DNA of 64,000 nucleotides from Amoebidium appalachense (Eukaryota > Protista > Ichthyosporea). The notes under the pieces are model-generated. The model did not search any database and was not told the DNA's origin. It saw only the letters and a list, made by a program, of their open reading frames with translations. Where the stretch lies: assembly GCA_963693365.1 (NCBI GenBank), contig CAVNZM010000005.1:9094334-9158333 (forward strand). Direction: 5' to 3'. The position numbers were made by a program, and so were the translations under genes. Positions 1,649-64,000 of the stretch are shown here, piece by piece; position 1 is the first letter of the stretch; each line of letters starts with the position of its first letter.

Positions 1649-1718
<70 letters not shown>

Positions 1719-2158
1719 GACACACACACACACACACACATCACTGGGTGCGCTCGCTGGGGATTAGTTTTTTGGCACGCTGTTGACTTTATCGTGTGTT
1801 TATTATTTGCTATTTATTGGCCAGCGGCCAACATTTAAAAATATACTATATACCTAAAAATAGATACTGACTACGGCCAGCAGACATTATACACCTTCCA
1901 GGACACATTAACACCAATAGTCTAACACACCATACTCTCGATCACAAAGAATTCCTAACAAACAGAGAAAAGTGCAAAGGCTCTGTACTATTACTCAGAT
2001 TCTAAATTTTAATTCTTTACAGTAAACTTCGGAATGAAAGCTAGCCCCCCCCCCCCCCCCCCCCCCCCCTCCCCCCTAACATGACTGTACGAAGAACAGG
2101 TATAACTTGAAGCACTACAACACATATGAGATCCGTTACATTGGTGTACATTCCAATA

Positions 2159-3843: not shown

Positions 3844-3880
<37 letters not shown>

Positions 3881-3952
3881 TGGGGTTGCTAAGGAAAAAA
3901 ACGAGCAGGGAAAGGCAAAAAACAACTGGCTAGGCAGCAAGGGCCGTGCGGG

Positions 3953-4020
<68 letters not shown>

Positions 4021-4024
4021 ATGT

Positions 4025-4055
<31 letters not shown>

Positions 4056-4610
4056 AGGCTAGGGTGTGCGTGTGTGTGCAGATGAACCAAGGATGACAAA
4101 TAAGCGAAGAATCTTTTCTGTGGTGGTGGAGTTGTTGGGCGCCTGCAGGGGGGGGGGGGGGGGGGGGGGGGGGGTTGTTGCCTCGAGTCTTTCAAAGCCA
4201 TCCTTCTTGAACAGAGGCTTGCCATCCGGTCCGGGCGGCACATCCTTGTAGGTGTTTTTGAACTCCACCAGCCGCGAGACCAGCGTGTATGGGTCGGGAA
4301 TAACCCGCCGGATGCGCTCCATGAAGTAGCTCAGGTCGCCGCCCTTGAGCTCGGTTTCAATGTCGATGCCCTTCTGCTCCAGCACCCCCTGTGAGGCAGG
4401 ATGCCAATATTAATTTACTACGCACACTGCAATTTGGGTTTGGTAGACTTTGATACCTGCCGTTATTGTAGGACCCCTCCCCTCCACCCCCCCCATCTTC
4501 TCCCCCAACACAAGTAAAAAATGCATGTGGCTATTTCCCCCCACAACCCTACATTATTTCTCTCTAGGCATATGAATAACCCCCCACTCTCCTCCCCCCC
4601 TCCCCCCCCC

Positions 4611-4643
<33 letters not shown>

Positions 4644-7600: not shown

Positions 7601-8296
7601 AGGGGGGCGTGTGTGTGTGTGTGTGTGGGGGGGGGGGGGGGGTGGGGGTGTGTGGGGGGGGGAGGGGGGGGGAGAGGGGGCCTGGGGGGAGAGTGGGGGG
7701 AGGGGGGAGAAGAGGAGGGACCACACACCGCCAAGCTCGTTTACACAAGTCCATAGGCCTCGGTACAGAGGCTCCCCATTGATGCCGGTGAGCTTCCCAA
7801 TTTGGAAGGTGTGGTCGGCCTTGAGCACGTTGTTTACGGGCTTGAGCTGCGTGTCCAGGCTCTGGTACTTTGCCGTGCGGTCGCTGAACTCAGTATACAC
7901 GGCACTCAGGTATTTGCCTGAACCCCAAGTACTGTTAGAACTCCACCACCCTCCCATCAGGACCATCCCCCCCATTCCCTCTAGTCCCTCGTGTTCATCT
8001 CACCTCTCTGTATTTTCGTAAGTCTGTATGGCTTTTCCCATCTCAAAAACGCTACACACCCATCTCCGGCCGTTTGCCCCCCCCCCCCCCTCCCCCCCCC
8101 CCCCCCCCCTCCCCCCGCCTCCCGGCGCGCGCAAACCCTCCAAGTCATTGCACCAACTTTCACCTTCTTTCCCCTTTGTGCCCCATCTGCAGTTTGTCCC
8201 CTGCACGTCCGTTTGCCCTTCCCCCCACACCCTCCTGCCACTACTATAATAACCATTAAGTACCGCCACCAAGATCCAGTCTACCACCATGTGCCC

Positions 8297-8339
<43 letters not shown>

Positions 8340-10023
8340 CTCTCCACCTCCTTTCCCCCAACACACACAGACACACATGCGCACACCCACCATCTAATTT
8401 CAGGCATAACAGTTCTCCACGATTTCCCAAGCACACTCACTGGTACATGGACCGTTATGCTTTCACCCCTCTGATGATCCCTCTGCCCTCCCCCCCCCCC
8501 CCCCCCCCCCCCCCCCCACCACCACCACCACCACCACCACCATGACTGATTGCCACCACCACCACCTAATCCATCACCATGTCCCCCCTCCCCCTCCCCC
8601 CCCCCCCCCTCCCCACACACACACACACACACACGGACCCACAAGTACACGCACACTCACAGGCGCACATCCACCACCACACATCCACCACCACCATAAT
8701 AGAAACTTATTGACCACACTTCCAAAACCCATTTCCAAGTCCCCCCCCCCCCTAAAAAAAAAATAAAAAATAATAAAACAAAACCCTACCAAGCCAACCC
8801 AAAAAATGCCCAAGCACGTGCATACAAAACAATGGGGACCATTTACACACCCAAAATGCAGTGCACACTTGCCTGAAGGCACATGTCCAGCGTAACCATT
8901 TTTTGTCACCAAACGCCGAGAACTTAGCCGCCTGCTCCTCTGGGGGAAGTTCTGTCAGGCGCTGGTCGTGGGGGCGGAAATCGTTACGCTTTTTGAGTTC
9001 ATACTTGGTCCAATGCAGCGCCCTCGAGTAATACAGGAGCCGCTGCTCGTCGTATCGCTGCTTGTGGAGCTCCGAGAGGAGGGTGGCAAAGGCGTTTGGG
9101 CCCACACCTTTGTCTGCCAGTGCACGCAACAATGTTACCACCTTTAGGTCGAGCCCACTGCGGTGGCTAAGGTAGGCCGGAAACTGATCACGCATGAAGA
9201 GTGGAAGGCGTTTAATTGTCTGGGGGTTTGTGCCGGCAAAGTTTTTTTTGCATGTGTCACAAAAGTACCGGGCCGTGATAATGTAGTAGCAGCTGTCAAA
9301 GTCGATAACACGCCGTCCTACGGGGTTGCTCATGAACCCATTGCGAGAAGTACGGTGTGGGTTGGGGTGGTTGTGGGGGTCCACGTAGTGATCATCGAAG
9401 GGGCACGGCACCATGAAACCGGGAGACAACCTTTCCGGAAGCCAGGCAAAACATCTGGGTTTGTAGAAAGGCGCTGGATCGCCCCCAAATTTAAAGCCTA
9501 TAATGGGAGGTGGAAGATGCCACCCCACAGGCGTCTTCTCATCTTTGAGACTCTCTTTCACTGTGTGCAGGTGCGACTTGATTGTTTCGCCCGCCGCGTC
9601 AGAAAACTCCTCTCCACCGTCATCCCCGTCCGTATTATCTTCTCCCTCTTCCTCCCCTTCATCCTCGTCTACCCGGTACGCATCTGCTGCTGCATTTAGC
9701 AAAGGTTCCTCGTCGGGTTGCACCTGTATGTCTGGTGGGTGTGGAGCAGGGGCCCGATCCATTTCTCTTGGTAACGAATGGACGCTACCTGCCTCAACTA
9801 CACGGGCCCTTATGTCGGCGGCCTTAGATAGAGGGGGCTGTTCGGGTTGTACGTTTACGTTTAGTTCCTGCAAAACAGCTTTGTTTGCCGTCCCAAAACC
9901 TGCAAAGTTCGCTAAAGGCTGAACAAATGCAGCATCTTTTTTTTTGCGCCCAGCTCCCTCCCTAGCTCCGCCTGTTTTATGCCCAGGGCGCTGTGTTGTG
10001 CCCTTAGGGCAGCCTGGCTTCAT
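2159..10023 (-). CDS. Spliced transposase-like protein (~1540 aa): DUF6729-like N-terminus, DDE-type core, embedded DEDDy (WRN-like) 3'-5' exonuclease, C-terminal Cys knuckle and Pro-rich tail
   Basis: Exons 10023-8873, 7917-7729, 6757-5927, 5492-4852, 4388-4182, 3758-2159 join with consistent phase (two donors are GC). Motifs: GGAREGAGRK, RYFCDTC..QFPAYLSHRSGLD, KADHTF, YTDRCC, VGLDCEW/IGTD/YAALDA, DAFH, RCIRGTNEVEG, CKTC..CPG..CP. Two +1 homopolymer frameshifts (~8900 A6, ~3612 C6) must be corrected. Start at the first in-frame ATG is inferred. Confidence 0.8.
5960..6420 (-). other. DEDDy 3'-5' exonuclease domain (WRN/RNase D family) within the transposase-like gene
   Basis: ExoI VVGLDCEW, ExoII KVGKQIGTD, VRCSNW, ExoIII YAALDAY; all catalytic residues present. 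Confidence 0.9.
6850..7150. repeat. Degenerate minisatellite in intron 2 of the transposase-like gene
   Basis: About six variants of cccccaaacccatgtgcccacatactttccc. Confidence 0.75.
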
Positions 10024-10750
10024 TTTAAACACTTGGGGCCTGGCCCCCTGCCCCCCTAGTGCGACTACGTTACCGCAAACATTCCCGTATTCCAGTGTGC
10101 TCGGCAATGCTGCTCATGGCCTTCCCGGACTGGTTGTGACCAGTAAAGAGCGCGCCAATTCCTGACCGCCGCCTACAGCAGTGTATGATCTGTTATCCAT
10201 ATTCGGCAAAAGGGGTCTTGCCCAACCAATGGCTTGAATCCTTGTAACTTTGCTTTATCCATATAAGGTTAGCTGAACACCCCCCCTCCAATCATACCCC
10301 CCCCTTCTCTCTAGTAGTAGCTCCTGGCATGCCGCACCCCCCTTATATCAGCCTTATCAGCTTATAACGTTCCGCTATGTGTGTATATACCCGCTGGCTT
10401 ACGTACCGTAAGTGGCCGCCGGTCGGCGCCGGATTCCTGTTGGGCAATCGGACCAATAGGAAAGCTGTATTTTTCCCTGCTGTAACCGTTCCTGTTGGGC
10501 AATAATAGTAACGCTTCCTTAATTATTAATGCGACTTTGAACCAATCATATGCTGTAAATTTAAATTTATTTGCGCAATCAGACATAGTGACTGTCCATG
10601 GAACGGTTGAGTCGGGCCGCAGGGAGACAGTCACTCAAAGTGAGGCCCTCTCCGAGTGATCATGAGGGGTATTGTGGTGGCGGTACCATGGGCACGCTAC
10701 AACACCCCCAACAAAAATTTTCAGAGTCCGTCCGGCAGTGTTCATACAGA

Positions 10751-16315: not shown

Positions 16316-27341
<11,026 letters not shown>

Positions 27342-46962: not shown

Positions 46963-47301
46963 GGCGTGTGTGGGAAATCGAAGGCACCTGAGAGGTCCAG
47001 TAAGGTTTACTCGACCAATATCGGCTAAACGATAGCGTCCAATCGTTATCAAGCGTCACATCTCGCGCAGGTATATAAACACCAAACCCACCATAAGCCC
47101 TCTCAGTTCAAACTTCAAAGCCAGTTGTGCAGAAGTACAGCCATAGCATCCCGCTCGCTCTCCTACAAAACGAGTTGCAAACTGTATCACCTGGCCACCG
47201 AAAAAAACCAAACCGTGATCTGTGCATACCTGTAGTATCGCACACATTTTCAGCCTTGCAATCACACATCATCTATTCTTCAACCATCCGCCCACGCAAC
47301 C

Positions 47302-48102
47302 ATGCAGCCCATCCTTTTTGGCGCCCTTTTGGCCGTCACGGCGCAGCAGACAGAGGCCACGTGGGGCCTAAACACGTGGTGGGGATGGAACCCGTCCGGC
47401 ACCGCCACGGCCACGGCCAAGCCCAGCAGTGCGTCCGCGGCCACCAACTGGGGCTGGGGCTGGAACTGGGGCCCATGGGCCGGGAAGCCAGCAGGCGCCA
47501 ACCTGTGGGGGTCGTGCCCTCAGGGCCAGTGGCAGTGGCGCACGGGCTGCCGCGCCATTCCCGAGTGTGCGCCCGGCCAGGCCTGGAAGGGCTGGGCGGC
47601 CGGCTGCTGCCGAAACGACTGCCCCATCAACCAGACGTGGGACCCACGCACCGGCCGCTGCTGCGCCGAGCCCACGTGCCCAGCCGGACAGGGCTGGAAG
47701 GGCTGGGCCCGTGGCTGCTGTGCCGACAATCCCGCCCCCGTGTCCCGCCCGGCCACAAAACCTGCCCCTGCCCCCGCGCGCAATGTGGCCGTTGCCCAGC
47801 CAGCCCCCGCCCCCGTCAGTGCCCCTGAGCCTGTGTCCGACCTGGCAGGGGAGGACGTCGATGTGGTCGATGACGCCGCCCCGGTCAGCCCTCCACCTGC
47901 TGTGGTCCGCCCTGCGCCCATTCCCGTTTCTGACTCGATTGCAGCACCACGCCCCGCTCAGGTTCCAGTGACCTCGAACGCATCCCCCGTTGCTGCGTCT
48001 GCTGGCAATGATGATGCTATCGAGGGAAGTGCTGTGGGTGAGGAGAATCTGGTGGTGGATGGAGAGGAAGTGCCCTACGTGGGTGAGGGTGCTGACCAGT
48101 AA
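47302..48102 (+). CDS. Secreted Trp/Gly/Cys-rich protein, copy 1 (266 aa)
   Basis: Signal-peptide-like N-terminus, WG repeats, CPxGQxWKGWxxGCC modules, Pro/Ala linker, acidic tail; strong GC3 bias; frame conserved across three copies. Confidence 0.88.
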   Translation: MQPILFGALLAVTAQQTEATWGLNTWWGWNPSGTATATAKPSSASAATNWGWGWNWGPWAGKPAGANLWGSCPQGQWQWRTGCRAIPECAPGQAWKGWAAGCCRNDCPINQTWDPRTGRCCAEPTCPAGQGWKGWARGCCADNPAPVSRPATKPAPAPARNVAVAQPAPAPVSAPEPVSDLAGEDVDVVDDAAPVSPPPAVVRPAPIPVSDSIAAPRPAQVPVTSNASPVAASAGNDDAIEGSAVGEENLVVDGEEVPYVGEGADQ

Positions 48103-49573
48103 TGTGCAAATTCAATGCAATAAGCCGTGATATGAATGACTACTTCTGTGAAAAGCATCAATATATATGTACGTAATGAAACTTAGTGTTGTTGCCTCTA
48201 AAACATTTTCGTTTCATTGTAAAAACCAGTACCCGTTTCATTGTAAAAACTAGTACCCATGCTGCTTGTAGCAGTCTTATTATGCCTGCACCTGTAGTGG
48301 GCAACCTACGAATGATTAAATGCAAACCCCCGTAAATTTAACGCACATACGCACGGCCCAGGCTGCTGGAAGCCGTTGTACTACGACTTTCCCAAGAGGC
48401 TTTTGTGTACCTTGCTTGCATGCACAACCCATTCCCGTTACCAAATCTCTCCCACAACGGAGCCCTGATAAATTGTTTCCCTCCCTTGCACCCCTCTACT
48501 GCCACCTGTATCCACTGCTGTCCAAATACCGTACTTGCCCCCCCCTCCAACACTCCCAGTGACGGCCTACCCCCCCCCCCCCCCTCCCCCCACCACCCCC
48601 CTTCCCCCCTTTTCGCCCTCTTCCCACTTCCTACCCTTGCAGATTCCGTGTTCCAACCTTCTCTACCCTTCTAGTAACGTCTTTCCCACCCCCCACCCCC
48701 CACCCCCCCCCCCCCTCCCCCGGACCCTACCTCCTTCCCGTCAAGCACCAAAACCGTCACCACCACAACCTTTCCCTCGCCTGCCCAGAAGTTAAAACTA
48801 GTACCCCCCTTACCCCCCTCCCCACCCCTGAGCCCCCCCCCCCCCCCCCCCCCCCCCCCCTCTCCCCGCCCCTCCTCCCCACCAATGGGCCGTGTTGTCC
48901 CAGTGCTGGTGGCACAAAACAATACTTTCACTAAGAATGATTGCCGTACCAGCTCTCACCACGCCCAAGCTACACAATCATAGTATGATGTTTCTTTGTA
49001 AATAGAATGACCATTATGAGCGCTATGAGCCGTCTTACAGTTTTTGTTTTGTTTTTAATCTGAAACACCCACGTTAATTGCGCATCACACTTCACGCACA
49101 GTGGCTGTAGTCACACCAACGGACGCCTGTAGCGAGCAATCGCGCACGCCTGCACACACACACGCGCCAACACAAACATGCACACACATAATAAAGACGC
49201 ACATACAAACACACGCACAAACAAACACACGCAAACACAAACACAGGCACACACAAACACAGGCACACACGCACGCACACCCAAACACACACACACACGC
49301 GCGCGCGCGCACACACACACACACACACTCACTGTCAAACATTACAGGCAGGTATCTTGCAAATTGGATGCACATCGCAAGTCCACTTGTTATTGACCCA
49401 CGGTAGCATTTAGGGTCATTATTTCTTACATAACTTTCAAGTGAATCAGGAAGCCTCTTGCTTCAATGCCAGCTTAATGTTGCACCTGTGCAACTGAAAG
49501 AAAAAAGAACATGCATCGTTTCACAATCGGCCCCGGAAACCATACGGGCAGAAGGGGGACTGAATGGGGGAGT

Positions 49574-49623
<50 letters not shown>

Positions 49624-50944
49624 GGGGAAGGGGTAGGCCAGGGATTGAAGAATTACGAACTAAGCCGGCTGTAGCTACAACCGCGCAACAATTGACGTAA
49701 ACCTCTCGGCTAATGATCCAAGTAGAGCAAACATAATCTGTAGGAATATGTGAGAACTTGGCGAATCACTTCTTTCACATCAGCCAGAGAGAGGTAAAGG
49801 GGGAGAGGGAATGGGGGGAGAGAGGGGGGGGGGAGGGGGGGTGTTAGGGGGGGGGGGGGGGGGGGGAGAGAGAGAGGGGCTGTGACTTCGACCCTTGGAA
49901 ACATCATCAACTTCCCTATATTTAACCACATCTCCCTCCACACCCAGCCTGCGAGCGCGAGCCGGACCCCTTGTAGTATATATATAATATAACGGTAAAT
50001 ACGTGACCTGGTATGACCGATGAGAGCAAGCTCTTTCGATGATTCGACATTCCCGACGGAATAGACATCTATGATAAGTAATTCGGAACTTCATGCTGTA
50101 GTTTGCTTTGGCCATGGAGTTTGGGAGTCATTTGCATTTCTAACACTGGGTTTTTCACCATCGGCTTGGGATTAATTTTCATTTTCTCACCCTTCTTCAA
50201 TCGAATTCGGGTATTGATGTGATTCTAATCTACTGTTGTAAATTTACAAAAAAAGAAACAAAAAATAATAATCACAAGAAGTCACTAATTATTTTGCGAT
50301 ATTCTTGCCGAATCGATGGGTCGAAATTTAGCAAACATACATACCATTGAATAAACAGAGTTACAAACCTCCAATCCGATATTCGACTCGCATATCATTG
50401 CCGTAAATGACTCAAAGCCCATAAACCATTGTTTTTATATGTGTGCAGCATGTCAGTATCAGAAGCAAAGACTTTCAAACCTTGAACCTCTTAATTATGC
50501 TTTAAAATTTGAGGCTCATTATTTTTTTAATAGGCGCAGTCGTATCGGCCCATGTCTTACTCTCTGTCAAAGTTGAACTCATGAGAAGTTGAGACGCGTC
50601 ACTCAACTTGAGACTGTTGAGAGTCTAGATTGACCAATCACACGTCTTGTTCGTAAGAACCGATCATAGAGATTCGTCGCACTTCCCGCAAGTATAAAGA
50701 CATCGATCTTCCACCAACTCTTTCAGTTTCACAAGTACAGCCAACCCCTCCTCTCAACACAACTCCAACCCTATTCGCTCTTCAGATTCTCGTCGTCTCC
50801 GAGTTTGCCGTACTGCACACTGCCTTGTAGAACACGGGTCGAAGCGATTATCTGTGGTAGCCCGCACATAATACACAAGCAAGGTGGCATAAACCACCCA
50901 TTTAGACACGATCAACTATTCTTCAACCACCCGCCCACGCAACC

Positions 50945-51592
50945 ATGCAGTCCTTCCTTTTTGGCGCCCTTTTGGCCGTCACGGCGCAGCAGACAGAGGC
51001 CACGTGGGGTCCCAACACGTGGTGGGGATGGAACCCGTACGCCACGGCCACGGCCAAGTCCAGCAGCGCGGCTGCGGTGAATAACTGGGGCTGGGGCTGG
51101 AACTGGGGCCCATGGGCCGGGAAGCCAGCAGGCGCCAACCTGTGGGGGTCGTGCCCTCAGGGCCAGTGGCAGTGGCGCACGGGCTGCCGCGCCATTCCCG
51201 AGTGTGCGCCCGGCCATGCCTGGAAGGGCTGGGCGGCCGGCTGCTGCCGAAACGACTGCCCCATCAACCAGACGTGGGACCCACGCACCGGCCGCTGCTG
51301 CGCCGTCCCCACGTGCCCTGCCGGCCAGGGCTGGAAGGGCTGGGCCCGGGGCTGTTGTGCTGATAACCCCGCCCCCGTGTCCCGCCCGGCCACAAGGCCT
51401 GCCCCTGCCAAACCAGCCCCCGCCCCCGTCACTGCGCCACAACCCGCTCAGGTCCCAGTGACCTCGAACGCGTCCCCCATTGCGGTGTCTGCTGGCAATG
51501 ATGATGCTATCGAGGGAAGTGCTGAGGGTGAGGAGAATCTGGTGGTGGATGGAGAGGAGGTGCCCTACGTGGGTGAGGGGGCTGACCAGTAA
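50945..51592 (+). CDS. Secreted Trp/Gly/Cys-rich protein, copy 2 (215 aa)
   Basis: Paralog of 47302-48102 with a shorter linker. Confidence 0.88.
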   Translation: MQSFLFGALLAVTAQQTEATWGPNTWWGWNPYATATAKSSSAAAVNNWGWGWNWGPWAGKPAGANLWGSCPQGQWQWRTGCRAIPECAPGHAWKGWAAGCCRNDCPINQTWDPRTGRCCAVPTCPAGQGWKGWARGCCADNPAPVSRPATRPAPAKPAPAPVTAPQPAQVPVTSNASPIAVSAGNDDAIEGSAEGEENLVVDGEEVPYVGEGADQ

Positions 51593-51940
51593 TGCACGAA
51601 TGTAAAATTATATTAACATAGCTAATCGTATGAAATATGTACGTACTTATTTCAATGAAACTGATCCCGAGAGAATAAAAGACTGCTTGTGGCAGTCTAA
51701 TTCTGCCACGTGTAGTGGACAACTTGAACTCAACTGAAAGTTCTTGTATTAATACATACTGTTGTCAAAATAAATACTGTTGTCAACACGAGCTCTACCC
51801 CGAGTCAGCCTCAAATTAGTTCCCTCGAGCTCCTTTCAAGCAGCACGCATGCGACCTCCCCAACAAGCACACGCTCTGTTCCTCAACCGTCTCCCCCTAC
51901 CCGTATCTTTTCACTCTTTCTCTATCCCTATATCATATAA

Positions 51941-52006
<66 letters not shown>

Positions 52007-52033
52007 CCCCCCCCCCCCCCCCCCCCCCCCGGA

Positions 52034-52106
<73 letters not shown>

Positions 52107-52272
52107 CTCTCACCCACCCCCCCCCACCCTCTCTCTCTTTTCTCCCTCTTCCCCTCCCCCCCCCCACCCTCTCTCTCTCTCTCTCTCCCCCCCCCCCCCC
52201 CCCCCTCACTATCCCCACCTCTCAGATGTTTCGATTTCCTGTCTCTCGCGCTTCCCCTCTTTCTCTCTTTTT

Positions 52273-52470
52273 CAGGGCCCAACCACATCGGCTGAGTCAA
52301 GTGGATTCGAGCAGATTAATTCTCAGTAAAAGCAGAATAATTCTGCATTCTGCTTTTTTCCGGAATAATTCTGCATTCTGCTTTTTTGCAGAATAATTCC
52401 GCTTTTTGCAGAAAAATCCCGCAAAGTCTGCTTTTTGCAAGTTGACTCTGACAGGTGTGGTTGGGCCCTT
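52273..52470. mobile_element. ~200 bp MITE with hAT-like CAGGG end and internal repeats
   Basis: Left (C)AGGGCCCAACCACATCGGCTGAGTCAA versus right TTGACTCTGACAGGTGTGGTTGGGCCCT; interior repeats of GCAGAATAATTCTGCATTCTGCTTTTT; no clear TSD. Confidence 0.75.
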
Positions 52471-52567
52471 TTCTCCCTCTCCCCACCTCTCTTTCGTTCT
52501 TTCTTCTTCCCTTCCACTTCACAGGATCTCCCCTCCCTCTCCATTCCCCCCCCCCCCCCCCCCCCCC

Positions 52568-52604
<37 letters not shown>

Positions 52605-52877
52605 TTCACCACCACCCCCTCCCCCTCCCTCCCTCCCCTTTCTCCCACTCTCTCTCCCTCCCTCCCTCCCTCCCTCCCTCCGTCACTCCCTCCCTCCCTC
52701 TCTCCCTTCCTCTCTCCCTCCCTTTCTCCCTCCCTCCCTCCCTCCCTCCCTCACTCCCTCCCTCCCTCCCCCCTCCCTCCCCCCACTCCCTCCCTCTCTC
52801 TCCCTCCCTCCCTCCCTCCCTCCCTCCCTCTCTCTCTCTCTCCCTCCTTCCCTCCCTCCCTCCCTCCCTCCCTCTCT

Positions 52878-53004
<127 letters not shown>

Positions 53005-53961
53005 ATAGGCTCTCAACTCCATCTCCCTCTCCCTCTCACACACTCTCTCTCGCTCTTTCTGGGGAGGTGGTGGGGGGGGGGGGGGGGGGGGGGGTAGACG
53101 GGGGGGTGTTGTTTTGTGTGGGTAAACGGCGAAGCAGAGAGCACAGATGGGTGTTATGATATACACAACACATAGACACACGGGAGAAACACAACCGGAG
53201 AGGTGGAACGATTTCTGGGACCATAGGAAATGATTTCAACTGCTTGATATTTATTTCAAGATGAAGTTGCGTTTATACTCAGGAATGTGAAATCGATAAG
53301 CCAATCAAAAGAACGAAAACTCTTTTATCCAATCAAAAAGACGAAAACTATGAGGGTAAAATAAATCGATCGAAATGCCTGTCGACACATAGAAGATAAA
53401 ACGCAATCTTCTAATGAAAGCAATCTTCTAATGAAAGTACGGAAACATTAACAAAATGAAACCACATATGTATCTATTAGTTCACATCACATATTTATAC
53501 ATGTTCTTAACATAACACGTCTAAATATAAGTAATCCTAATAGCTGGGGAGTTTAGAGCAATTCTACGTCGTGGGAAAAGAAGGAAAAGGAATGAGGATA
53601 GAAAGGAATGGAATGGGAAAGGAATTGAGTAGAATTAATGAGGAATGTAGGTTACTATATTTGGGAAACTATAACGAGATCTGATTGGACAACGTATTTA
53701 GACATGAACGCAAACAACAATACCTGTGCGCGGGCTAAATGGCTCGATGTGTACACAGATCTAAGATATCTGTGCACACGGAAACGGAAAGGAAAGAAAG
53801 AAAGGAAGAAAGGAAAGGAAACGAACTACAACAAACTAATAAACATGTGTAAAACTCAACTTCTGAGTCTTGCCGTTAACCATGGGTAGATGACAGGGGG
53901 AGGGCTCTATTAATCATATTTTTCCCCTCTTTTTTTTGTCCTGTTTGGAAAGGGGGAAAGT

Positions 53962-54020
<59 letters not shown>

Positions 54021-54179
54021 ATATATTTAGTCATTAATTCTAAGTCGCGCGCTAATAATATATTGCGTCATTCTTTCAACATAACAGCTGCAGCGAGTAG
54101 CATATCGTGTTTGCAGAAGAACACAGGGACACTCGTACGGGGAGCCCCTACGTTTCATAAGTAATTTAACGTAATAATC

Positions 54180-55379
54180 ATCCTCAAACTAATGCCATAA
54201 ATGAACGGTCCCACAGACCTATTAATGATGCCATTAGTAAGTATATGAATTTGGATCGTATTCGGGCAACATCCTACCCTTTTTCCGGACGTCTCTCTTT
54301 TGCCTCCTGGGGAACCCATGAAGCAACCAGAGTGGACTGCTCTAAGGGAAAAGGCGATAAGGCAAATTCACAGATTGTGCGGCATATGCAACTGAATAAG
54401 CCGCCAAGAATAATTCGCAAAAATCAGATCAAGTTGCGAAAATTCGCAATTATTTCAGAGAAGACCCAGTGATGATCAGAAATACTTCTGAGCATCTCGG
54501 TAAATTTTCCCCTCGTTGGCACCACGGATTCGAGGTGGTCAAGCAAGTGGGAGAATTAACTTATCGGGTCAGAAATAAGCAAGATTTAAATGATATTCGT
54601 ATTCTCAATGTTAACGATATTAATCTAGAAGTGCCTCTCTCTGTACGTGGTGTTATGCCCAACAATGATAACCTCCCTCTGACTGGTCAGTCACTTGGCT
54701 GGAATATCGTTGCAGATGATGAAGTAGAAATAGAGGCCATTCTAGATATGAAGATAGAACACCCAGTTTCCTTACGAAACCGGTGTGCTCTACCCACACA
54801 GAAATATCGGGTCCGCCTTAAAGCTGACCGTGGTAATCCTGTGTCGATGGATAAAACACAGTTGAGGTCATGTGCAAAATTAATTGCTGAATTTGAGTCT
54901 AAATTTGATCGGACACAAGCCCCTCTTCCCCACGTGCAGGAAGAGCAGGACTTGCCCGTATAAAATTTAGCACATGGCTATGATTGGTTCGTTAGGAACC
55001 ATTCTCCACAACACAGATCGTGAGCTGATGCTTATGACTATATGTCGTTTTCTCACACACACATCTCAACCTATCACTCACTCCTTCGAGGACGAAGGAT
55101 CTTAAGGGGGGGGTACTGAGGTGTGATTGCGCCATATGGGGTAAAATACCATCAAATAGTAGCCAATAGGATACGAGCCTGGTGCTCCATATATAGATGA
55201 GGAATTCAATGAGTGCGCCTACGTGTCCTGGAGACACCTTCCCGTACATCAGCCTGCGCTCTGTGCTGTGCAGAGAGCCGATAGTAAAGGGTTAGGGAAA
55301 CGAGTGAGTTCCCGTTAACCCCCAGTGTTGGTGTCGTGTTGCCTTTTCCCCTACAACTCCGTTCGAAGAACCCACTTCA
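54180..55379 (+). mobile_element. 5'-truncated Ty3/Gypsy (chromovirus-like) LTR retrotransposon: integrase tail, PPT and 3' LTR
   Basis: ORF remnant, then [28 protein letters not shown] (55104-55113), then a TG...CA segment at 55117-55379 with TGAGGTG/CACTTCA ends; left boundary approximate. Confidence 0.75.
54469..54963 (+). pseudogene. Integrase C-terminal (GPF/Y-like) plus degenerate chromodomain remnant
   Basis: KFSPRWHHGFEVVKQVGELTYRV..LNVNDI..EVEIEAILDMK..KYRVRLK. Confidence 0.75.
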
Positions 55380-55404
55380 ACACACGTATACACACAAGAG
55401 ACAC

Positions 55405-55867: not shown

Positions 55868-56941
55868 CTGTGACTTCGACACTTGGAAACATAAGCTCCC
55901 TTATCTTTAACCACATCTCCCTCCACACGCAGCCTGCGAGCGCGCGCAGCGCGCGAGCCGGACCCCTTGTAGTATATATATAACATAACGGTAAACACGT
56001 GACCTGGTACGACCGATGAAGGCAAGCTCTTTCGATGATTCGACATTCCCGACGGAATAGACATCTATGATAAGTAATTCGGAACTTCATGCTGTTTGCT
56101 TTGGCCATGGAGTTTGGGAGTCATTTGCATTTCTAACACTGGGTTTTTCACCATCGGCTTGGGATTAATTTTCATTTTCTCACCCTTCTTCAATCGAATG
56201 CGGGTATTGATGTGATTCTAATCTACTGTTGTAAATTTACAAAAAAAGAAACAAAAAATAATAATCACAAGAAGTCACTAATTATTTTGCGATATTCTTG
56301 CCGAATCGATGGGTCGAAATTTAGCAAACATACATACCATTGAATAAACAGAGTTACAAACCTCCAATCCGATATTCGACTCGCATATCATTGCCGTAAA
56401 TGACTCAAAGCCCATAAACCATTGTTTTTATATGTGTGCAGCATGTCAGTATCAGAAGCAAAGACTTTCAAACCTTGAACCTCTTAATTATGCTTTAAAA
56501 TTTGAGGCTCATTATTTTTTTAATAGGCGCAGTCGTATCGGCCCATGTCTTACTCTCTGTCAAAGTTGAACTCATGAGAAGTTGAGACGCGTCACTCAAC
56601 TTGAGACTGTTGAGAGTCTAGATTGACCAATCACACGTCTTGTTCGTAACACAGAACCGATCATAGAGATTCGTCGCACTTCCCGCAAGTATAAAGACAT
56701 CGATCTTCCACCAACTCTTTCAGTTTCACAAGTACAGCCAACCCCTCCTCTCAACACAACTCCAACCCTATTCGCTCTTCAGATTCTCGTCGTCTCCGAG
56801 TTTGCCGTAATGCACACTGCCTTGTAGAACACGGGTCGAAGCGATTATCTGTGGTAGCCCGCACATAATACACAAGCAAGGTGGCATAAACCACCCATTT
56901 AGACACGATCAACTGTTCTTCAACCACCCGCCCACGCAACC

Positions 56942-57589
56942 ATGCAGTCCTTCCTTTTTGGCGCCCTTTTGGCCGTCACGGCGCAGCAGACAGAGGCCAC
57001 GTGGGGTCCCGACACGTGGTGGGGATGGAACCCGTACGCCACGGCCACGGCCAAGTCCAGCAGCGCGGCTGCGGTGAATAACTGGGGCTGGGGCTGGAAC
57101 TGGGGCCCATGGGCCGGGAAGCCAGCAGGCGCCAACCTGTGGGGGTCGTGCCCTCAGGGCCAGTGGCAGTGGCGCACGGGCTGCCGCGCCATTCCCGAGT
57201 GTGCGCCCGGCCATGCCTGGAAGGGCTGGGCGGCCGGCTGCTGCCGAAACGACTGCCCCATCAACCAGACGTGGGACCCACGCACCGGCCGCTGCTGCGC
57301 CGTCCCCACGTGCCCTGCCGGCCAGGGCTGGAAGGGCTGGGCCCGGGGCTGTTGTGCTGATAACCCCGCCCCCGTGTCCCGCCCGGCCACAAGGCCTGCC
57401 CCTGCCAAACCAGCCCCCGCCCCCGTCACTGCGCCACAACCCGCTCAGGTCCCAGTGACCTCGAACGCGTCCCCCATTGCGGTGTCTGCTGGCAATGATG
57501 ATGCTATCGAGGGAAGTGCTGAGGGTGAGGAGAATCTGGTGGTGGATGGAGAGGAGGTGCCCTACGTGGGTGAGGAGGCTGACCAGTAA
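56942..57589 (+). CDS. Secreted Trp/Gly/Cys-rich protein, copy 3 (215 aa)
   Basis: Differs from copy 2 at two residues (N>D near the N-terminus, G>E near the C-terminus). Confidence 0.88.
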   Translation: MQSFLFGALLAVTAQQTEATWGPDTWWGWNPYATATAKSSSAAAVNNWGWGWNWGPWAGKPAGANLWGSCPQGQWQWRTGCRAIPECAPGHAWKGWAAGCCRNDCPINQTWDPRTGRCCAVPTCPAGQGWKGWARGCCADNPAPVSRPATRPAPAKPAPAPVTAPQPAQVPVTSNASPIAVSAGNDDAIEGSAEGEENLVVDGEEVPYVGEEADQ

Positions 57590-57937
57590 TGCACGAATGT
57601 AAAATTATATTAACATAGCTAATCGTATGAAATATGTACGTACTTATTTCAATGAAACTGATCCCGAGAGAATAAAAGACTGCTTGTGGCAGTCTAATTC
57701 TGCCACGTGTAGTGGACAACTTGAACTCAACTGAAAGTTCTTGTATTAATACATACTGTTGTCAAAATAAATACTGTTGTCAACACGAGCTCTACCCCGA
57801 GTCAGCCTCAACTTAGTTCCCTCGAGCTCCTTTCAAGCAGCACGCATGCGACCTCCCCAACAAGCACACGCTCTGTTCCTCAACCGTCTCCCCCTACCCG
57901 TATCTTTTCACTCTTTCTCTATCCCTATATCATATAA

Positions 57938-57997
<60 letters not shown>

Positions 57998-58023
57998 CCC
58001 CCCCCCCCCCCCCCCCCCCCGGA

Positions 58024-58115
<92 letters not shown>

Positions 58116-58283
58116 TCTCTCACCCCCCCCCCCCACCGTCTCTCTCTTTTCTCCCTCCTCCCCCCCCCCCCCACCCTCTCTCTCTCTCTCTCTCCCCCCC
58201 CCCCCCCCCCCCCCCCTCACTATCCCCACCTCTCAGATGTTTCGATTTCCTGTCTCTCGCGCTTCCCCTCTTTCTCTCTTTTT

Positions 58284-58481
58284 CAGGGCCCAACCACATC
58301 GGCTGAGTCAAGTGGATTCGAGCAGATTAATTCTCAGTAAAAGCAGAATAATTCTGCATTCTGCTTTTTTCCGGAATAATTCTGCATTCTGCTTTTTTGC
58401 AGAATAATTCCGCTTTTTGCAGAAAAATCCCGCAAAGTCTGCTTTTTGCAAGTTGACTCTGACAGGTGTGGTTGGGCCCTT
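58284..58481. mobile_element. Second copy of the ~200 bp MITE (carried by the duplication)
   Basis: Same sequence as 52273-52470. Confidence 0.75.
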
Positions 58482-58893
58482 TTCTCCCTCTCCCCACCTC
58501 TCTTTCGTTCTTTCTTCTTCCCTTCCACTTCACAGGATCTCCCCTCCCTCTCCATTCCCCCCCCCCCCCCCCCCCTCCCCCCCCCCCCCCCCCCCTCCCC
58601 CCCCCCCCCCCCCCCCCTTCACCACCACCCCCTCCCCCTCCTCCCTCCCCTTTCTCCCACTCTCTCTCCCTCCCTCCCTCCCTCCCTCCCTCCGTCACTC
58701 CCTCCCTCCCTCTCTCCCTTCCTCTCTCCCTCCCTTTCTCCCTCCCTCCCTCCCTCCCTCCCTCACTCCCTCCCTCCCTCCCCCCTCCCTCCCCCCACTC
58801 CCTCCCTCTCTCTCCCTCCCTCCCTCCCTCCCTCCCTCCCTCTCTCTCTCTCTCCCTCCTTCCCTCCCTCCCTCCCTCCCTCCCTCCCTCCCT

Positions 58894-59010
<117 letters not shown>

Positions 59011-59796
59011 ATAGGCTCTCAACTCCATCTCCCTCTCCCTCTCACACACTCTCTCTCGCTCTTTCTGGGGAGGTGGTGGGGGGGGGGGGGGGGGGGGGGG
59101 GGTAGACGGGGGGGTGTTGTTTTGTGTGGGTAAACGGCGAAGCAGAGAGCACAGATGGGTGTTATGATATACACAACACATAGACACACGGGAGAAACAC
59201 AACCGGAGAGGTGGAACGATTTCTGGGACCATAGGAAATGATTTCAACTGCTTGATATTTATTTCAAGATGAAGTTGCGTTTATACTCAGGAATGTGAAA
59301 TCGATAAGCCAATCAAAAGAACGAAAACTCTTTTATCCAATCAGAAAGACGAAAACTATTAAGGTAAAATAAATCGATCGAAATGCCTGTCGACACATAG
59401 AAGATAAAACGCAATCTTCTAATGAAAGCAATCTTCTAATGAAAGTACGGAAACATTAACAAAATGAAACCACTTATGTATCTATTAGTTCACATCATAT
59501 ATTTATACATGTTCTTAACATAACACGTCTAAATATAAGTAATCCTAACAGCTGGGGAGTTTAGAGCAATTCTACGTCGTGGGAAAAGAAGGAAAAGGAA
59601 TGAGGATGAGGGATACGGGATCGGCGATTTTGAGTGGTCCCCGATTTCTTTCTGGCGCCGCCTTTTTTTCCCCTGATTACGTAACGCGTTGCTACGCACC
59701 CACGCCGTACAACGAGTTTTGTGTTCGCAGAGGGCGCACAACCCGAAAGAATTTTTTTCATGAAAAGAAACTACTTTGAATACATGCACTTTTACC

Positions 59797-61169
59797 ATGG
59801 GTGTGCAGGGCTTGCTCCCAGCACTCGGCATTAGTGCCGAAAAAGCCACAGATGTTACTGCAGAGTTGCAACGTGGGGTAGTTGCTTTTGACGGGATGGT
59901 GCAGGTCCAGAAGTCCTTTTCAGTTTTCGCTGACACAGTAGCCAAACAGCAAATAGATGACAAAAAAGTCACAGACGACACATATGCAGCTATTGCAAAT
60001 CACTTTATGTCCAAAGTTAATACGTATAGGCTAGCAGGGGTCCAGCCACACTATGTGTTTGATGGGCGCAGATTGAAAGAGGGAAAACTAGTTGATAACG
60101 ACCGTGCAGAAAAGGTGGTCAAAGCCCGCCAAGAAATAGCCACAAAAAGAGAGAAACTGGAGGAGGTAACTAAAAACAAATTGAGAAGCGCTGCAGAGTT
60201 AGATAACAGTGTTTTACAAGCAATCCTCTTAGACCGAAAGATGAGAATGTCGATTACACAGTAGCTCCATACGAAGCAGACCCCCAGCTTGCCTATATGG
60301 CACGTACCGGTTTGGCACACACTGTTGTCACTGAGGATGCCGACCTTCTTCTGTATAACATCCCGCGGGTTGTATACAAACTGCGCATTGCGGATGCGGC
60401 GGTCATCCCTGGGACCGCTAATGCGGTGCGCATTCCCAAACTGTACGGAGTGATTGTAACCCCCGCCGATGTTTTTACCAGAAGCACAAAGTACAACTTC
60501 GACGGATGGGATATAGAAATACTGCGTTATTTTGCTATTGTGAACGGCTGTGATTATGTGAAAAAGCTCAGGGGAATCGGCATGGGCACTTTGCACGCAG
60601 CTGTAAGTGAGGCGTGCCGGGCCTGGGGACGCGAGGGAAGGCCGGTAGCTGCGGGGGTTGTGTTCACAGATCTGCTCCAGCATATCCAACGGGTCAGAAA
60701 GGGGAAAAGAGGGAAGGAAAAGCCCGTTAAAAGCACAGAAAACAAGCAGGGTGGGGACGAACGGGCAGGAAGAGTCGAAATCGGACGGAAAGGAGGTGAA
60801 GCAGTGGAGGAAGAGGTTGAGTGGTGGGATCTTGAATACGAACATGGAACGTATGAAAACGGGGCTGAGGTGATGAGGTTATAGAGATGCAATGATGAGG
60901 GTGAAGAGGTTATAGAGATGCAATATGCAGATGGTACGAAAAAGAGGCGGATAGTAGGACCAAGTGTAGAAGAATTGGCCCAATCATACAAGCCTGACCT
61001 TGTAGGGCTCCGTGCATTTGTACAGCAAATAGACCCTACTGGACACAAGTATAGTTTTACCTGGAATGAAAAGTTTATGGTGCAAATGTATCCATCATAC
61101 AGGGCAGAAAACCACAAAAAGTGGAAGAAGAAGAAGAAGAACACGAACACTGAAAATGCAACTGAATGA
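59797..61169 (+). pseudogene. EXO1/XPG/FEN1-family 5' nuclease, intronless, disrupted
   Basis: MGVQGLLP, AFDG, YVFDG, (frameshift ~60230) DENVDYTVAPYEADPQLAYM, VTEDADLL, NGCDYVKKLRGIG; in-frame TAG at 60882-60884 beside a 19-bp duplication, after which the frame continues to 61169. Confidence 0.88.
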
Positions 61170-61188
61170 TTCTGCCAAAAGTTTCCTT

Positions 61189-61219
<31 letters not shown>

Positions 61220-61252
61220 GTTTACGTTATCTTTCATAATGTGTGTGTGTGT

Positions 61253-61290
<38 letters not shown>

Positions 61291-61600
61291 GTAATCTTCT
61301 GACCGATCTAGTGAACCTATAATGAATGAATGAAGACCGTGTGTCAAATCTGAGAGCAATGTACCAGACCCTGGTGCCTGCATATGTTTCCTACCCCCCC
61401 CTACCCCCCCACCCCCTCCCCCCGGTCCCTCCTCCCCCCTTGGTGTTTGCATACGTGCCTACCTGCCCCCCCCCCCCCCCTCCCCCCCCCCCCCCACACA
61501 CGTGTGTGGGGGGGGGGGGGAGGGCGTGCATGCGTGCGTGTGTGCAAATGCGTGCGTGCGTGCGTGCTTCCGTGTGTGCGTGGTTGTGTGTGTGTGTGAA

Positions 61601-61631
<31 letters not shown>

Positions 61632-61797
61632 GGGGACGACTCAAGGTTGTACTTGGCACACAAATACATAAGTGGAGCCCTACTGGCCGAATACATACAT
61701 GCAAGCATTCATTCAAAAAAAAAGACAAAAAAAAAAAAAAAAAAAAAAAAAAAGCAGAGAAGGGGGCTTTAGGGAGAGGCAATCGAAAACGAAAATT

Positions 61798-62634
61798 CTA
61801 CACCATGCTTTTGGTGTGCCCGGACCCCACCATATCCTTATATAGTGGCTCTTGCATGTTACACAAGAAAGCCACAGCCTTAGCTACCATCCAATGGGTG
61901 CCTACCATCGACATCTGCACCTGATTGCTAAACAGCCGATAATTTTTCATGCGCCCAAAAGCCCTCTCACTGCTCGTCTCCCCCCGCTCCCTCGCTCGTT
62001 TCCGTGTTTGCTCAATATCTGAGGCATCCATTCCTACAGCTTGCATATGACTATTGGCCCTTTCCTCCCTCAATAGCTGTACCTTCTCTCTGTACATCGG
62101 GTCTAGTTCCATTCGGATGGGACATGCATCCTTTGTTAATTTCAGTTTTCCATTCTTAACAGTAATATCATCATCGGTGAAATGTGCCTCGCATACAACC
62201 AGTTGCTTAAGGATAGCCAGTGGCCAGGGGACTTCCACCTTCGGTTGCCCCCGTTTCCTCTTTGGTTGTGGTTCTTGTGCCGACTGCTCAGCTGGCACAG
62301 CCGAGTCATTGGCATTTTCGGATTGTGTGTCAGCTGTGTGTGTCTCAGTAGTGGTTGTGTCTGTATTTACGTTTGTCCCATCCGAGGCCTTTGGCCTTGT
62401 GTCTGTGTGTGTGTCTGGGTCGGGGGGTGCTTGCTTTGTGTGTTCTGCTATTTGTTTCCGCTCATACTTTGTTTGCTCCTGCCTGCCTATAGCATTTAAC
62501 CAAGCATGCCTCCTAGCCAATACATTTGGTTTGCATCCATATGGAACAGTAAAAAGCTTTATCTTCCTGGTAGGATCTTTGGGAGAGACTGTTTCTTCGT
62601 CATTTTTGCAGTAGTTAGCCGCGCAAGTTGGCAT
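61798..62634 (-). pseudogene. THAP domain fused to the C-terminal end of a DDE_Tnp_4-type transposase (internally deleted)
   Basis: MPTCAANYC..LFTVP..AWLNAIGR..VVCEAHFTDDD..LTKDACP (THAP); EQTRKRAR..ERAFGRMKNYRLF..AVAFLCNMQEPL resembles the ISL2EU/Harbinger C-terminus; HTH and the two catalytic Asp regions are not present. Confidence 0.8.
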
Positions 62635-63191
62635 TGTGAGTGCCTAACATATATAGTTAGAAAACAACCCGCCTTCATGAAAAATGTGCAGCGCAGTTTT
62701 GTCCGGACACGTGTGTGGCATGCCGTGTGTACATGGTATAGCTCGGCCACACGATCTTAGGTGCCCAATAGGCAGATCAAGCCCACTCAATCCAGATAGA
62801 TATCGATCTGAGCGGCGCCAGAAAGTATTCGAGCCGTGCGATCCCGTAAGGAATCGAGTAGAATTAATGAGGAATGTAGGTTACTATATTTGGGAAACTA
62901 TAACGAGATATGATTGGACAACGTATTTAGACATGAACGCAAACAACAATACCTGTGTGCGGGCTAAATGGCTCGATGTGTACACAGATCTAAGATATCT
63001 GTGCACACGGAAACGGAAAGGAAAGAAAGAAAGGAAGAAAGGAAAGGAAACGAACTACAACAAACTAATAAACATGTGTAAAACTCAACTTCTAAGTCTT
63101 GCCGTTAACCATGGGTAGATGACAGGGGGAGGGCTCTATTAATCATATTTTTCCCCTCTTTTTTTTTGTCCTGTTTGGAAAGGGGGAAAGT

Positions 63192-63248
<57 letters not shown>

Positions 63249-64000
63249 GGAATATATTTAGTCATTAATTCTAAGTCGCGCGCTAATAATATATTGCGTC
63301 ATTCTTTCAACATAACAGCTGCAGCGAGTAGCATATCGTGTTTGCAGAAGAACACAGGGACACTCGTACGGGGAGCCCCTACGTTTCATAAGTAATTTAA
63401 CGTAATAACTTATTAACTTTTATAATACAAAAAGTCTTGCTATTACTGAATAATATGAATGGGCCGGCATAGTGATAGCCAAGGTGGATGTACTGACCAT
63501 ATATCATAAGTAAATTGCCCGCCGTATACGTGGTACAGTGTAGTCTGCTGTAGTGTATATATACCAACACCTTGCTCAGCAATTGGTCGTATTCTGTTGT
63601 TAGTCTAAAGTTAAATAGTATGCCATTTTTCATAGCTATATACTTGATATTTTATGGGGTCTCCATGTGTAAGAGTCGTGTGTCCCAGTGCAGACAACTA
63701 GAGTCATTCATAACTCATATAAACATACTGTACTATGGCTGTTTTCCGGAGTCATAATATTATGTCGTTGGCATGGATGAGCCTCGTGGTACTATGGTCT
63801 TATTTATACAACGTTTCGGGCAGTCTCATACGGTACTTCTATTTTTCGACTGTCTTGTTTTTTTATCCCCCTTTTTGTTTCCGGGGAAAGGGGCGGAGGG
63901 GGGGGGGGGGGGGGGGGGGGGGAGGGGAGGGGGGGAGGGGGGAGGGAAGGGGGGGGAGAGAGGGCGGGGGAGAGGAGGGGGAGGGCTAAAGGGTTCCTCG

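Follow-up and report, generated by a model that had tools for sequence, protein, structure and literature searches.

Does a DNA transposon carry a nuclease gene because its transposition requires one, and if so for which step? This question is raised by a 3.2-kb insertion in the genome of the ichthyosporean Amoebidium appalachense, located near the right end of a 64,000-nucleotide stretch (the window, hereafter; GenBank assembly GCA_963693365.1, contig CAVNZM010000005.1, forward-strand positions 9,094,334 to 9,158,333). Between its terminal inverted repeats (TIRs), two genes converge: one encodes a predicted nuclease with XPG_N and XPG_I halves, the other the remnant of a transposase with a THAP zinc finger and the tail of a DDE_Tnp_4 domain. 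The insertion belongs to a multi-copy TIR transposon family of Amoebidium, of which the window holds an internally deleted and frameshifted copy, and the EXO1-like nuclease is very probably a trait of the whole family. We lean towards the view that, in this family, the EXO1-derived nuclease takes the part tentatively ascribed to the YqaJ exonuclease in ISL2EU transposons. The features on which this argument relies are given below in window coordinates.

53599..53619, no strand: empty site in the sister duplicate, which spans about 49799-54177 (self-alignment of the window)
59606..59607, no strand: putative left target-site duplication (TSD) AT, the final two bases common with the empty sister site
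59608..59623, + strand: left TIR, outer block; model TRAGGGATACGGGATCG, the window being one T short of the model (X7 and X13 contigs)
59648..59661, + strand: left subterminal inverted block CTTTCTGGCGCCGC, a perfect 14-bp inverted match to 62812-62825
59797..60227, + strand: nuclease gene, XPG_N half, from ATG to frameshift (PF00752, E 3.1e-5; Atlas 0.95 to XPG_N clusters)
60228..60884, + strand: nuclease gene, XPG_I half with a GCDY...GIG motif of helix-three-turn-helix (H3TH) type and a charged tail (PF00867, E 9.4e-14; stop at 60882-60884)
60875..60924, + strand: 19-bp local duplication (60875-60893 = 60906-60924) holding the nuclease stop, possibly filler DNA at a second internal deletion
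60885..61800, no strand: spacer of simple repeats (poly-T, poly-G, poly-C, GT, poly-A) plus 3' remnant, separating the converging genes, from the sequence
61798..61968, - strand: transposase C-terminal tail of DDE_Tnp_4, ERAFGRMK...LCNMQEPL (PF13359 positions 121-158, E 0.005 alone)
61967..61968, - strand: in-frame internal deletion junction in the transposase, with a 2-bp microhomology, where contigs leave or break
61969..62634, - strand: transposase N-terminal part, THAP zinc finger split by ~90 low-complexity residues (PF05485, E 1.4e-8; 99% to Amoebidium parasiticum EukProt P018990)
62812..62825, - strand: right subterminal block, inverted match to the left one
62839..62848, - strand: right TIR, truncated; 10-bp match to 59614-59623; the final 4-7 bases are gone, as are about 20 bp of flank

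The insertion and its family

The first-pass annotation, made from the letters alone, had delimited the insertion by comparison with an empty sister duplicate, and alignment of the window with itself by BLASTN bears this out: positions 56001-59607 match 50005-53599 at 98.0% identity and 62848-63408 match 53619-54177 at 98.9%; the sister lacks the insert between 59607 and 62848 and carries 19 additional bases at this place. The empty allele was also met as loose ends in contigs from public sequencing runs, and filled and empty alleles are identical through ...GAGGAT at the left breakpoint. The bipartite inverted ends likewise hold, with outer blocks of 10 bp (59614-59623/62839-62848) and inner blocks of 14 bp (59648-59661/62812-62825); in 2000 shuffles, a 14-bp inverted match never arose (0/2000) and a 10-bp match arose 17 times. 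The 13-bp end motif occurs once exactly within the window, plus once with two mismatches, a chance match. The converging reading frames, predicted at ~180-210 bp from each end, start at ATGs located 189 and 214 bp from the element ends.

By contrast with these features, the extremities first placed at 59616 and 62846 had to be revised. The left end of the window copy lies at ~59608-59610: a contig of the public run X7 starts at 59609, and one of run X13 switches there to a different flank (...GTATTA followed by AGGGATAC). On the right, 4-7 bases and ~20 bp of flank have been lost. Past 62848, other copies run on as TCCCTTAAT (X7) and TCCCTCAAT (X6), an X1 contig too has 9 more letters, and right-end contigs from three runs all stop 9 letters after 62848, the right ends of these copies reading TCCCT(T/C)AAT beyond that position (among 24 of 51 loose ends). 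From these longer ends it follows that the inverted repeat of the family exceeds the version first described and that the right end of the window copy is truncated; this loss of bases and flank leaves no clean TSD in the window. Mobility is supported by public contigs, which show two different flanks on the left and, on the right, two more end sequences; the family has accordingly inserted at more than one site.

Two models may account for the ends. Under model A, which we somewhat prefer, the element would start with TRAGGGATACGGGATCG, its ends beginning TRAGGG, and would duplicate AT. Under model B, slightly less favoured, it would have GGG ends and a TNA duplication in an AT-rich target. 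The dinucleotide AT adjoins three element ends in public contigs, and also the window breakpoint if one T is missing, no single insertion being represented with both flanks; TGA, TAA, TTA and TCA adjoin GGG/CCC at four ends, and the breakpoint of the empty allele is without TGA. Model A costs one T missing in the window and model B a one-base difference from the empty allele; the former is preferred because it explains the shared stop at nine letters in three runs as well as the AT at the breakpoint of the empty allele. A TA duplication with ends at 59616/62846 was rejected, since other copies have longer ends. A TTAA duplication of the Kolobok type fits two of the four ends (X13 left and X7 right), X6 right reading TCAA and window left ATGA.

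The target of the insertion (59456-59607 and 62848-63124) is itself a high-copy repeat with many variant contigs, its depth in X7 being far above that of the element. An X1 contig holds the left junction of the window, with the majority letters in the flank and a different sequence upstream of 59493.

Public runs link the nuclease gene to the element. At least part of the nuclease stretch is present in 20 of the 24 runs listed (5 studies), and at least half of it in 16; one of these runs may have supplied the window sequence itself. In all four runs inspected (4/4), contigs that start at the left end or cross it reach the nuclease gene, no loose end falling between the two among 18 of 30, and in X7 the depths of the nuclease part (978.8) and the THAP part (959.2) are close, these values not being copy numbers. 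X13, conjectured to be an RNA run, has no cover at 62658-62845, a gap that carried no weight in the analysis. Public contigs show other copies in which the nuclease frame is open, and likewise transposase sequence from the part that is missing in the window. Full-length copies presumably hold the nuclease and a complete transposase between the same ends. The window copy is dead and non-autonomous, being damaged three times, by the nuclease frameshift, the transposase deletion and the cut of its right end. No YqaJ or Myb match was found in the element frames of at least 60 aa of this copy, and the frames of the spacer 60885..61800 gave no meaningful Pfam family, just low-complexity matches under the cut-off.

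The transposase remnant and the nuclease

The proposed pairing of a THAP-DDE transposase with an XPG nuclease stands for most of its domains: the Pfam matches to THAP, XPG_N and XPG_I are all above the curated cut-off, and that to DDE_Tnp_4 covers a tail only and falls under it. The transposase frame of the window (278 aa) has its THAP halves at 62455-62634 and 62110-62250, and its DDE_Tnp_4 match is limited to model positions 102-158 (E 8e-4, 19.5 bits for a cut-off of 24.8). Keeping only the last third of this domain, it is without the helix-turn-helix (HTH) and the first two catalytic Asp, owing to the internal deletion at 61967/61968. X1 contigs depart at this junction with 614 and at least 255 other letters, and X7 and X13 contigs break there; should the two X1 contigs be adjacent, the deleted middle would measure at least ~840 bp. 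In other copies, the letters upstream of the transposase tail encode QRLSSVRVHV instead, which yields RVHVERAFGRMK, and RVHVER forms an R(3)E motif, which in the description given by PMC4122938 carries the third catalytic residue. This motif and the THAP finger support, at the level of sequence, a transposase of PHIS/ISL2EU type.

Two Amoebidium parasiticum proteins mirror these forms, EukProt P0151 (278 aa, 99%) being the deleted one and P0155 (287 aa) running past the junction with other residues. No full-length transposase was found among 965 candidates of 488-2000 aa, and a search restricted to 152-487 aa retrieved, from 248 candidates, a single cluster, the EukProt one of the family itself; an Atlas lead with THAP, HTH_Tnp_4 and DDE_Tnp_4 scores just 0.76. 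We take the Trinity-style EukProt names to denote transcriptome assemblies, which suggests that both element genes are transcribed; the 99% match to such proteins implies that the matched parts are without introns.

The nuclease had been annotated as a single open reading frame (ORF), and this does not hold for the window, where a break near 60227 puts XPG_N and XPG_I in separate frames. An extra base behind 60227 in all four public runs restores both halves to one frame, and none of the 8 scored substitutions in the gene (7 in all four runs, 1 in three) creates a stop. The XPG_I half is 99% identical to Amoebidium parasiticum EukProt P018428. The form recorded as EukProt P0001 (XPG_I half, 99%) begins MMART; this agrees with X13, where one more G behind 60296 causes a second frame shift, and the public-run contigs hold at least two independent frameshifted nuclease forms.

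In other copies the nuclease may well exceed the 362 positions of the window copy: the stop of the latter at 60882 falls within the first unit of the 19-bp repeat, and an X13 contig enters at 60891 out of at least 255 foreign letters, which read open in the downstream frame. Positions 60885-61169 were rejected as part of the window nuclease ORF, a 5-bp insertion being present there in three of the four runs. In X1, the stretch 60838-61170 is covered four times as deeply as the remainder of the nuclease gene; 60838 is also a breakpoint of X1 and X7 contigs, and another form joins here.

All seven acidic positions of the EXO1-type active site are retained. The XPG_I half contributes, by alignment with EXO1 proteins, the E and the D in YEAD, the two D in TEDAD and the D in GCD; D32 and D89 of the N-half, like G2 and R103, are invariant with respect to 10 EXO1 proteins, even though identity in the N-half is just 15-26%.

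Several comparisons support an EXO1-like, strongly diverged protein, as had been suspected. Its closest solved relative is human EXO1 (E 5.7e-14, vs 4.9e-5 for an archaeal FEN1), and the predicted fold of the XPG_I half (pLDDT 69.8) gives a half-domain match to EXO1 and FEN1 that is weak (E 1e-4) and of little weight. In a search of 1.84 billion representative proteins, the sole score below 1e-30 was that of the family's own protein and the next best match had 42% identity. Among 19 further protein matches that were looked up, 9 had a source name, of which 7 read exonuclease 1, Rad2 nuclease, exonuclease, PIN-domain-like or a gene id alone and 2 'hypothetical'. No near-identical host copy was found among the proteins searched, a SWIM motif was absent from the 160 proteins examined, and the window protein as query retrieved no viral relative; used as single queries, the window proteins had no match in metagenome or viral contigs.

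The phylogeny called for by the first-pass annotation, with EXO1 and viral FEN-like proteins, was built as a quick tree of 44 rows, for which 31 of 60 EXO1-like proteins having both halves were joined by 12 of 18 locus frames and by the window protein, an X marking its break. Its EXO1 rows were picked as best matches, and eukaryotic FEN1, GEN1 and XPG were left out. The element nuclease falls within the EXO1 side (SH-aLRT 98), on an end branch of 2.5 for a median of 0.75. A viral origin was rejected, a clade with seven viral-type FEN-like proteins being excluded by the approximately unbiased test (p-AU 0.011). Recent capture from the host was also rejected, on the 42% next-best identity, the low N-half identity and the long branch, Amoebidium's own EXO1 not being among the identified sequences. 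The GC content at third codon positions (GC3) is 0.43-0.52 in both element genes and 0.78 in one neighbouring host gene; this difference, the long end branch inside the EXO1 side and the distant next-best match point to a nuclease that has probably long resided in the element.

Comparable pairings were sought around EXO1-like genes of other organisms. A scan with an EXO1 profile over 25 of the 64 parts of a metagenome collection provided the best 80 of 505 confirmed stretches, which together with 2 viral loci made 82 loci. All 7724 frames of at least 40 aa were screened by motifs and phmmer, the best THAP/DDE score (E 0.2) not being credible, and Pfam was applied to 223 frames of at least 200 aa (224 from 66 loci, with 9 of the near-duplicate L070 dropped and 8 added). 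At E 1e-6, DDE_Tnp_4, THAP, YqaJ and SWIM were all missing from the 5 best families of each of these 223 frames, a weak negative given that the search patterns favour host-type EXO1.

The locus L102 holds at 1426-3234 (+) an intronless, long-branch EXO1-like frame of at least 603 aa, on a 3.9-kb contig filed in a Gallionella metagenome-assembled genome. It is possibly a eukaryotic element-borne nuclease, and the contig stops before any partner gene.

Known systems and competing explanations

In the passages of PMC4482050 (Han et al. 2015), PMC4122938 (Han et al. 2014) and PMC9179366 that describe them, ISL2EU elements have a THAP-HTH-DDE transposase, a YqaJ second ORF, AT duplications and usual GG ends; the first of these sources states the role of the YqaJ exonuclease as unknown, and its 25 families are all from animals. 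Like ISL2EU elements, the Amoebidium element has a THAP domain at the start of its transposase, a DDE_Tnp_4-type R(3)E motif, short TIRs and a nuclease as second ORF, and its best end model gives the AT duplication. It differs by the EXO1/XPG fold of its ORF2 in place of YqaJ, which its window frames lack, by TRA ends under the AT model where ISL2EU has GG, and by an ichthyosporean instead of an animal host; the GGG ends of model B would agree with the usual GG. We consider it as an ISL2EU-like PHIS family in which EXO1 apparently replaces YqaJ, and not as a canonical ISL2EU member.

PIF/Harbinger and Nuwa elements, as outlined in PMC4482050, possess a related DDE core, two ORFs with a Myb/SANT ORF2, a TNA duplication and GGG ends. 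The DDE core and the two ORFs are shared, and GGG with TNA is the rival end model of our element; their Myb/SANT ORF2 has no match in it, and THAP lies outside their description. Kolobok elements associate THAP with a TTAA duplication, whereas the tail found here is that of DDE_Tnp_4. AcademX carries a nuclease of XPG type, and the Academ transposase is unrelated to the DDE_Tnp_4 type. AcademX has a TSD of 3-4 bp and another transposase, whereas the remnant of our element matches just THAP and DDE_Tnp_4. AcademX, too, is a TIR transposon that brings along an accessory nuclease, for which a role in shaping the TSD has been proposed, and the passage of PMC10045372 that links the TSD lengths of AcademX and AcademH to nuclease vs helicase provides a precedent for an accessory nuclease acting near integration. 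With host EXO1 (PDB 3qea, 5uzv, 5v0b), the element nuclease shares the XPG_N, XPG_I and H3TH core and the acidic set, these proteins giving its best sequence and fold matches; it differs by its low N-half identity, long branch and location inside a mobile element, by the loss of the LH motif, and by the absence from the window copy of the long C-terminal region (362 positions, many EXO1 matches having 500-1000 aa).

The claim of an undescribed PIF/Harbinger-ISL2EU lineage was thus upheld as to the PHIS/ISL2EU-type transposase and amended as to canonical ISL2EU membership. No paper on a THAP-DDE_Tnp_4 and XPG/EXO1 pairing was found, supplements, Repbase Reports and Dfam, which may list such elements or an identical architecture, being outside the scope of the search. 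Within this scope, none of the three observations named in the first-pass annotation as refuting its reading (copies without the nuclease, near identity to host EXO1, an identical catalogued architecture) was made. The relevant passages of PMC12730594, PMC6431247 and PMC5718144 do not describe the pairing, and a term search of the main text of the Amoebidium genome paper (PMC11244446) returned no Harbinger, PIF, XPG or THAP.

A division of labour may be proposed on the ISL2EU model. The THAP domain would bind the two-part ends, the DDE core would cut and transfer the 3' ends into an AT target, and the nuclease would see to the 5' side, cutting or trimming either the 5' strand that is not transferred or 5' flaps, be it at the ends of the element or in the product of strand transfer. 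Lambda-type YqaJ is a 5'-directed nuclease; the EXO1-like protein would act in the same direction with a different fold. Copies like that of the window would move in trans only, and the window copy itself probably not at all since its right end is cut.

Several observations count against this role in second-strand processing. None of the 82 EXO1-like loci (0/82) has a DDE, THAP or YqaJ neighbour, their neighbourhoods being host-like or viral. No public-run contig spans the whole element or bridges the simple-repeat spacer, and the nuclease and a complete transposase were not met together on one molecule in these contigs; X1 depth is uneven (109-1369), and the unseen deleted middle could hold more than transposase. 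P0155 stops at 287 aa, by a stop codon or by the end of the transcript, and the nuclease form recorded as P0001 is not intact. The near-invariant LH motif of EXO1 is lost and the gateway Lys displaced by one, and the copies, ~99% alike, give no basis for a selection test.

Three other explanations were weighed. With the same family and gene pair, the nuclease might act after excision, resecting the donor break for a copying repair that restores the element and raises its copy number. Host EXO1 is itself a resection nuclease, and the internal deletion of the window, with its 2-bp microhomology and likely filler duplicate, would suit this scenario; in P and Ac/Ds elements, aborted gap repair leaves such internal deletions and filler. 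Elements without a nuclease gene show similar deletions. Moreover, the EXO1 of the host could serve, and the element enzyme has no long EXO1 C-terminal region in the window copy. We regard donor resection as unlikely, if the most credible of the three. Hardly more improbable is a passenger nuclease: the family would have captured an EXO1 gene or cDNA a single time and carried it along as it diverged, without any use for it in transposition. Passive uptake of cargo is known from DNA transposons, for instance of the TET/JBP genes treated in part of PMC12730594, nothing closer than host EXO1s was found, the screen of 82 loci yielded no second case, and frameshifted forms arose at least twice independently. 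Neutral drift would nevertheless be unlikely to spare every catalytic acidic residue at 15-26% N-half identity and on a branch more than three times the median, and the nuclease gene lies as far from its end of the element as the transposase gene from the other.

Far less probable is a chance composite, in which a THAP-DDE remnant and the nuclease of another element or of a giant virus would be nested between look-alike ends. Amoebidium carries many viral insertions according to the section of PMC11244446 on the subject, and a 600-bp simple-repeat spacer, unbridged by any contig, parts the two genes; set against this are the identical two-part inverted repeat at both ends, the position of the nuclease on the EXO1 side with its viral-type grouping rejected, and the absence of any viral relative in the search. 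A 5'-strand-processing nuclease working alongside the transposase is the explanation that we retain as the likeliest.

Surroundings and meaning

Around the insertion, the evidence for intron-rich host genes, which the first-pass annotation had set against the intronless nuclease, is weak: it comes down to one short exon match, and the secreted-protein gene nearby (56942-57589) runs through a single open frame. The exon match, of 42 aa to a signal peptide peptidase (E 4e-6), lies at 26519-27232 (+) and is likely a single exon of a host gene. A small protein rich in Trp, Cys and Pro, which begins like a signal peptide and matches no Pfam family, is encoded by three paralogs in tandem (47264-48104, 50906-51594 and 56903-57591; 93% alike). 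The stretch 54178-55400, adjoining the empty sister copy, is probably what remains of a long terminal repeat retrotransposon: SH3_Tf2-1 matches weakly at 54400-54960 (E 0.009), and purines form a tract around 55043-55055. At 2162-10113 (-), long intron-poor frames with a DNA_pol_A_exo1 3'-5' exonuclease (5739-6842, E 5.5e-15) and DUF6729 (8755-10113, E 2.2e-18) look like another large transposon with its own exonuclease.

Beyond this family, we tentatively envisage an undescribed, old and widespread ISL2EU-like branch that depends on its own EXO1-fold 5' nuclease, with the Amoebidium family as its opisthokont representative, YqaJ and EXO1 being two unrelated folds for one obligatory second-strand step; we give this wider proposal less credence than the role suggested for the nuclease in Amoebidium. 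If true, such a two-fold recruitment would explain the job of the PHIS second ORFs. An unrelated but 5'-directed nuclease in the place of ORF2 predicts that this job is 5'-strand processing, and that the two nucleases might be exchangeable. As the active sites of the EXO1 fold are well mapped, a dead mutant would be easy to define and the question is directly testable. Finally, the occurrence of this pairing in a close unicellular relative of animals raises the alternative of one old origin vs repeated captures of EXO1.

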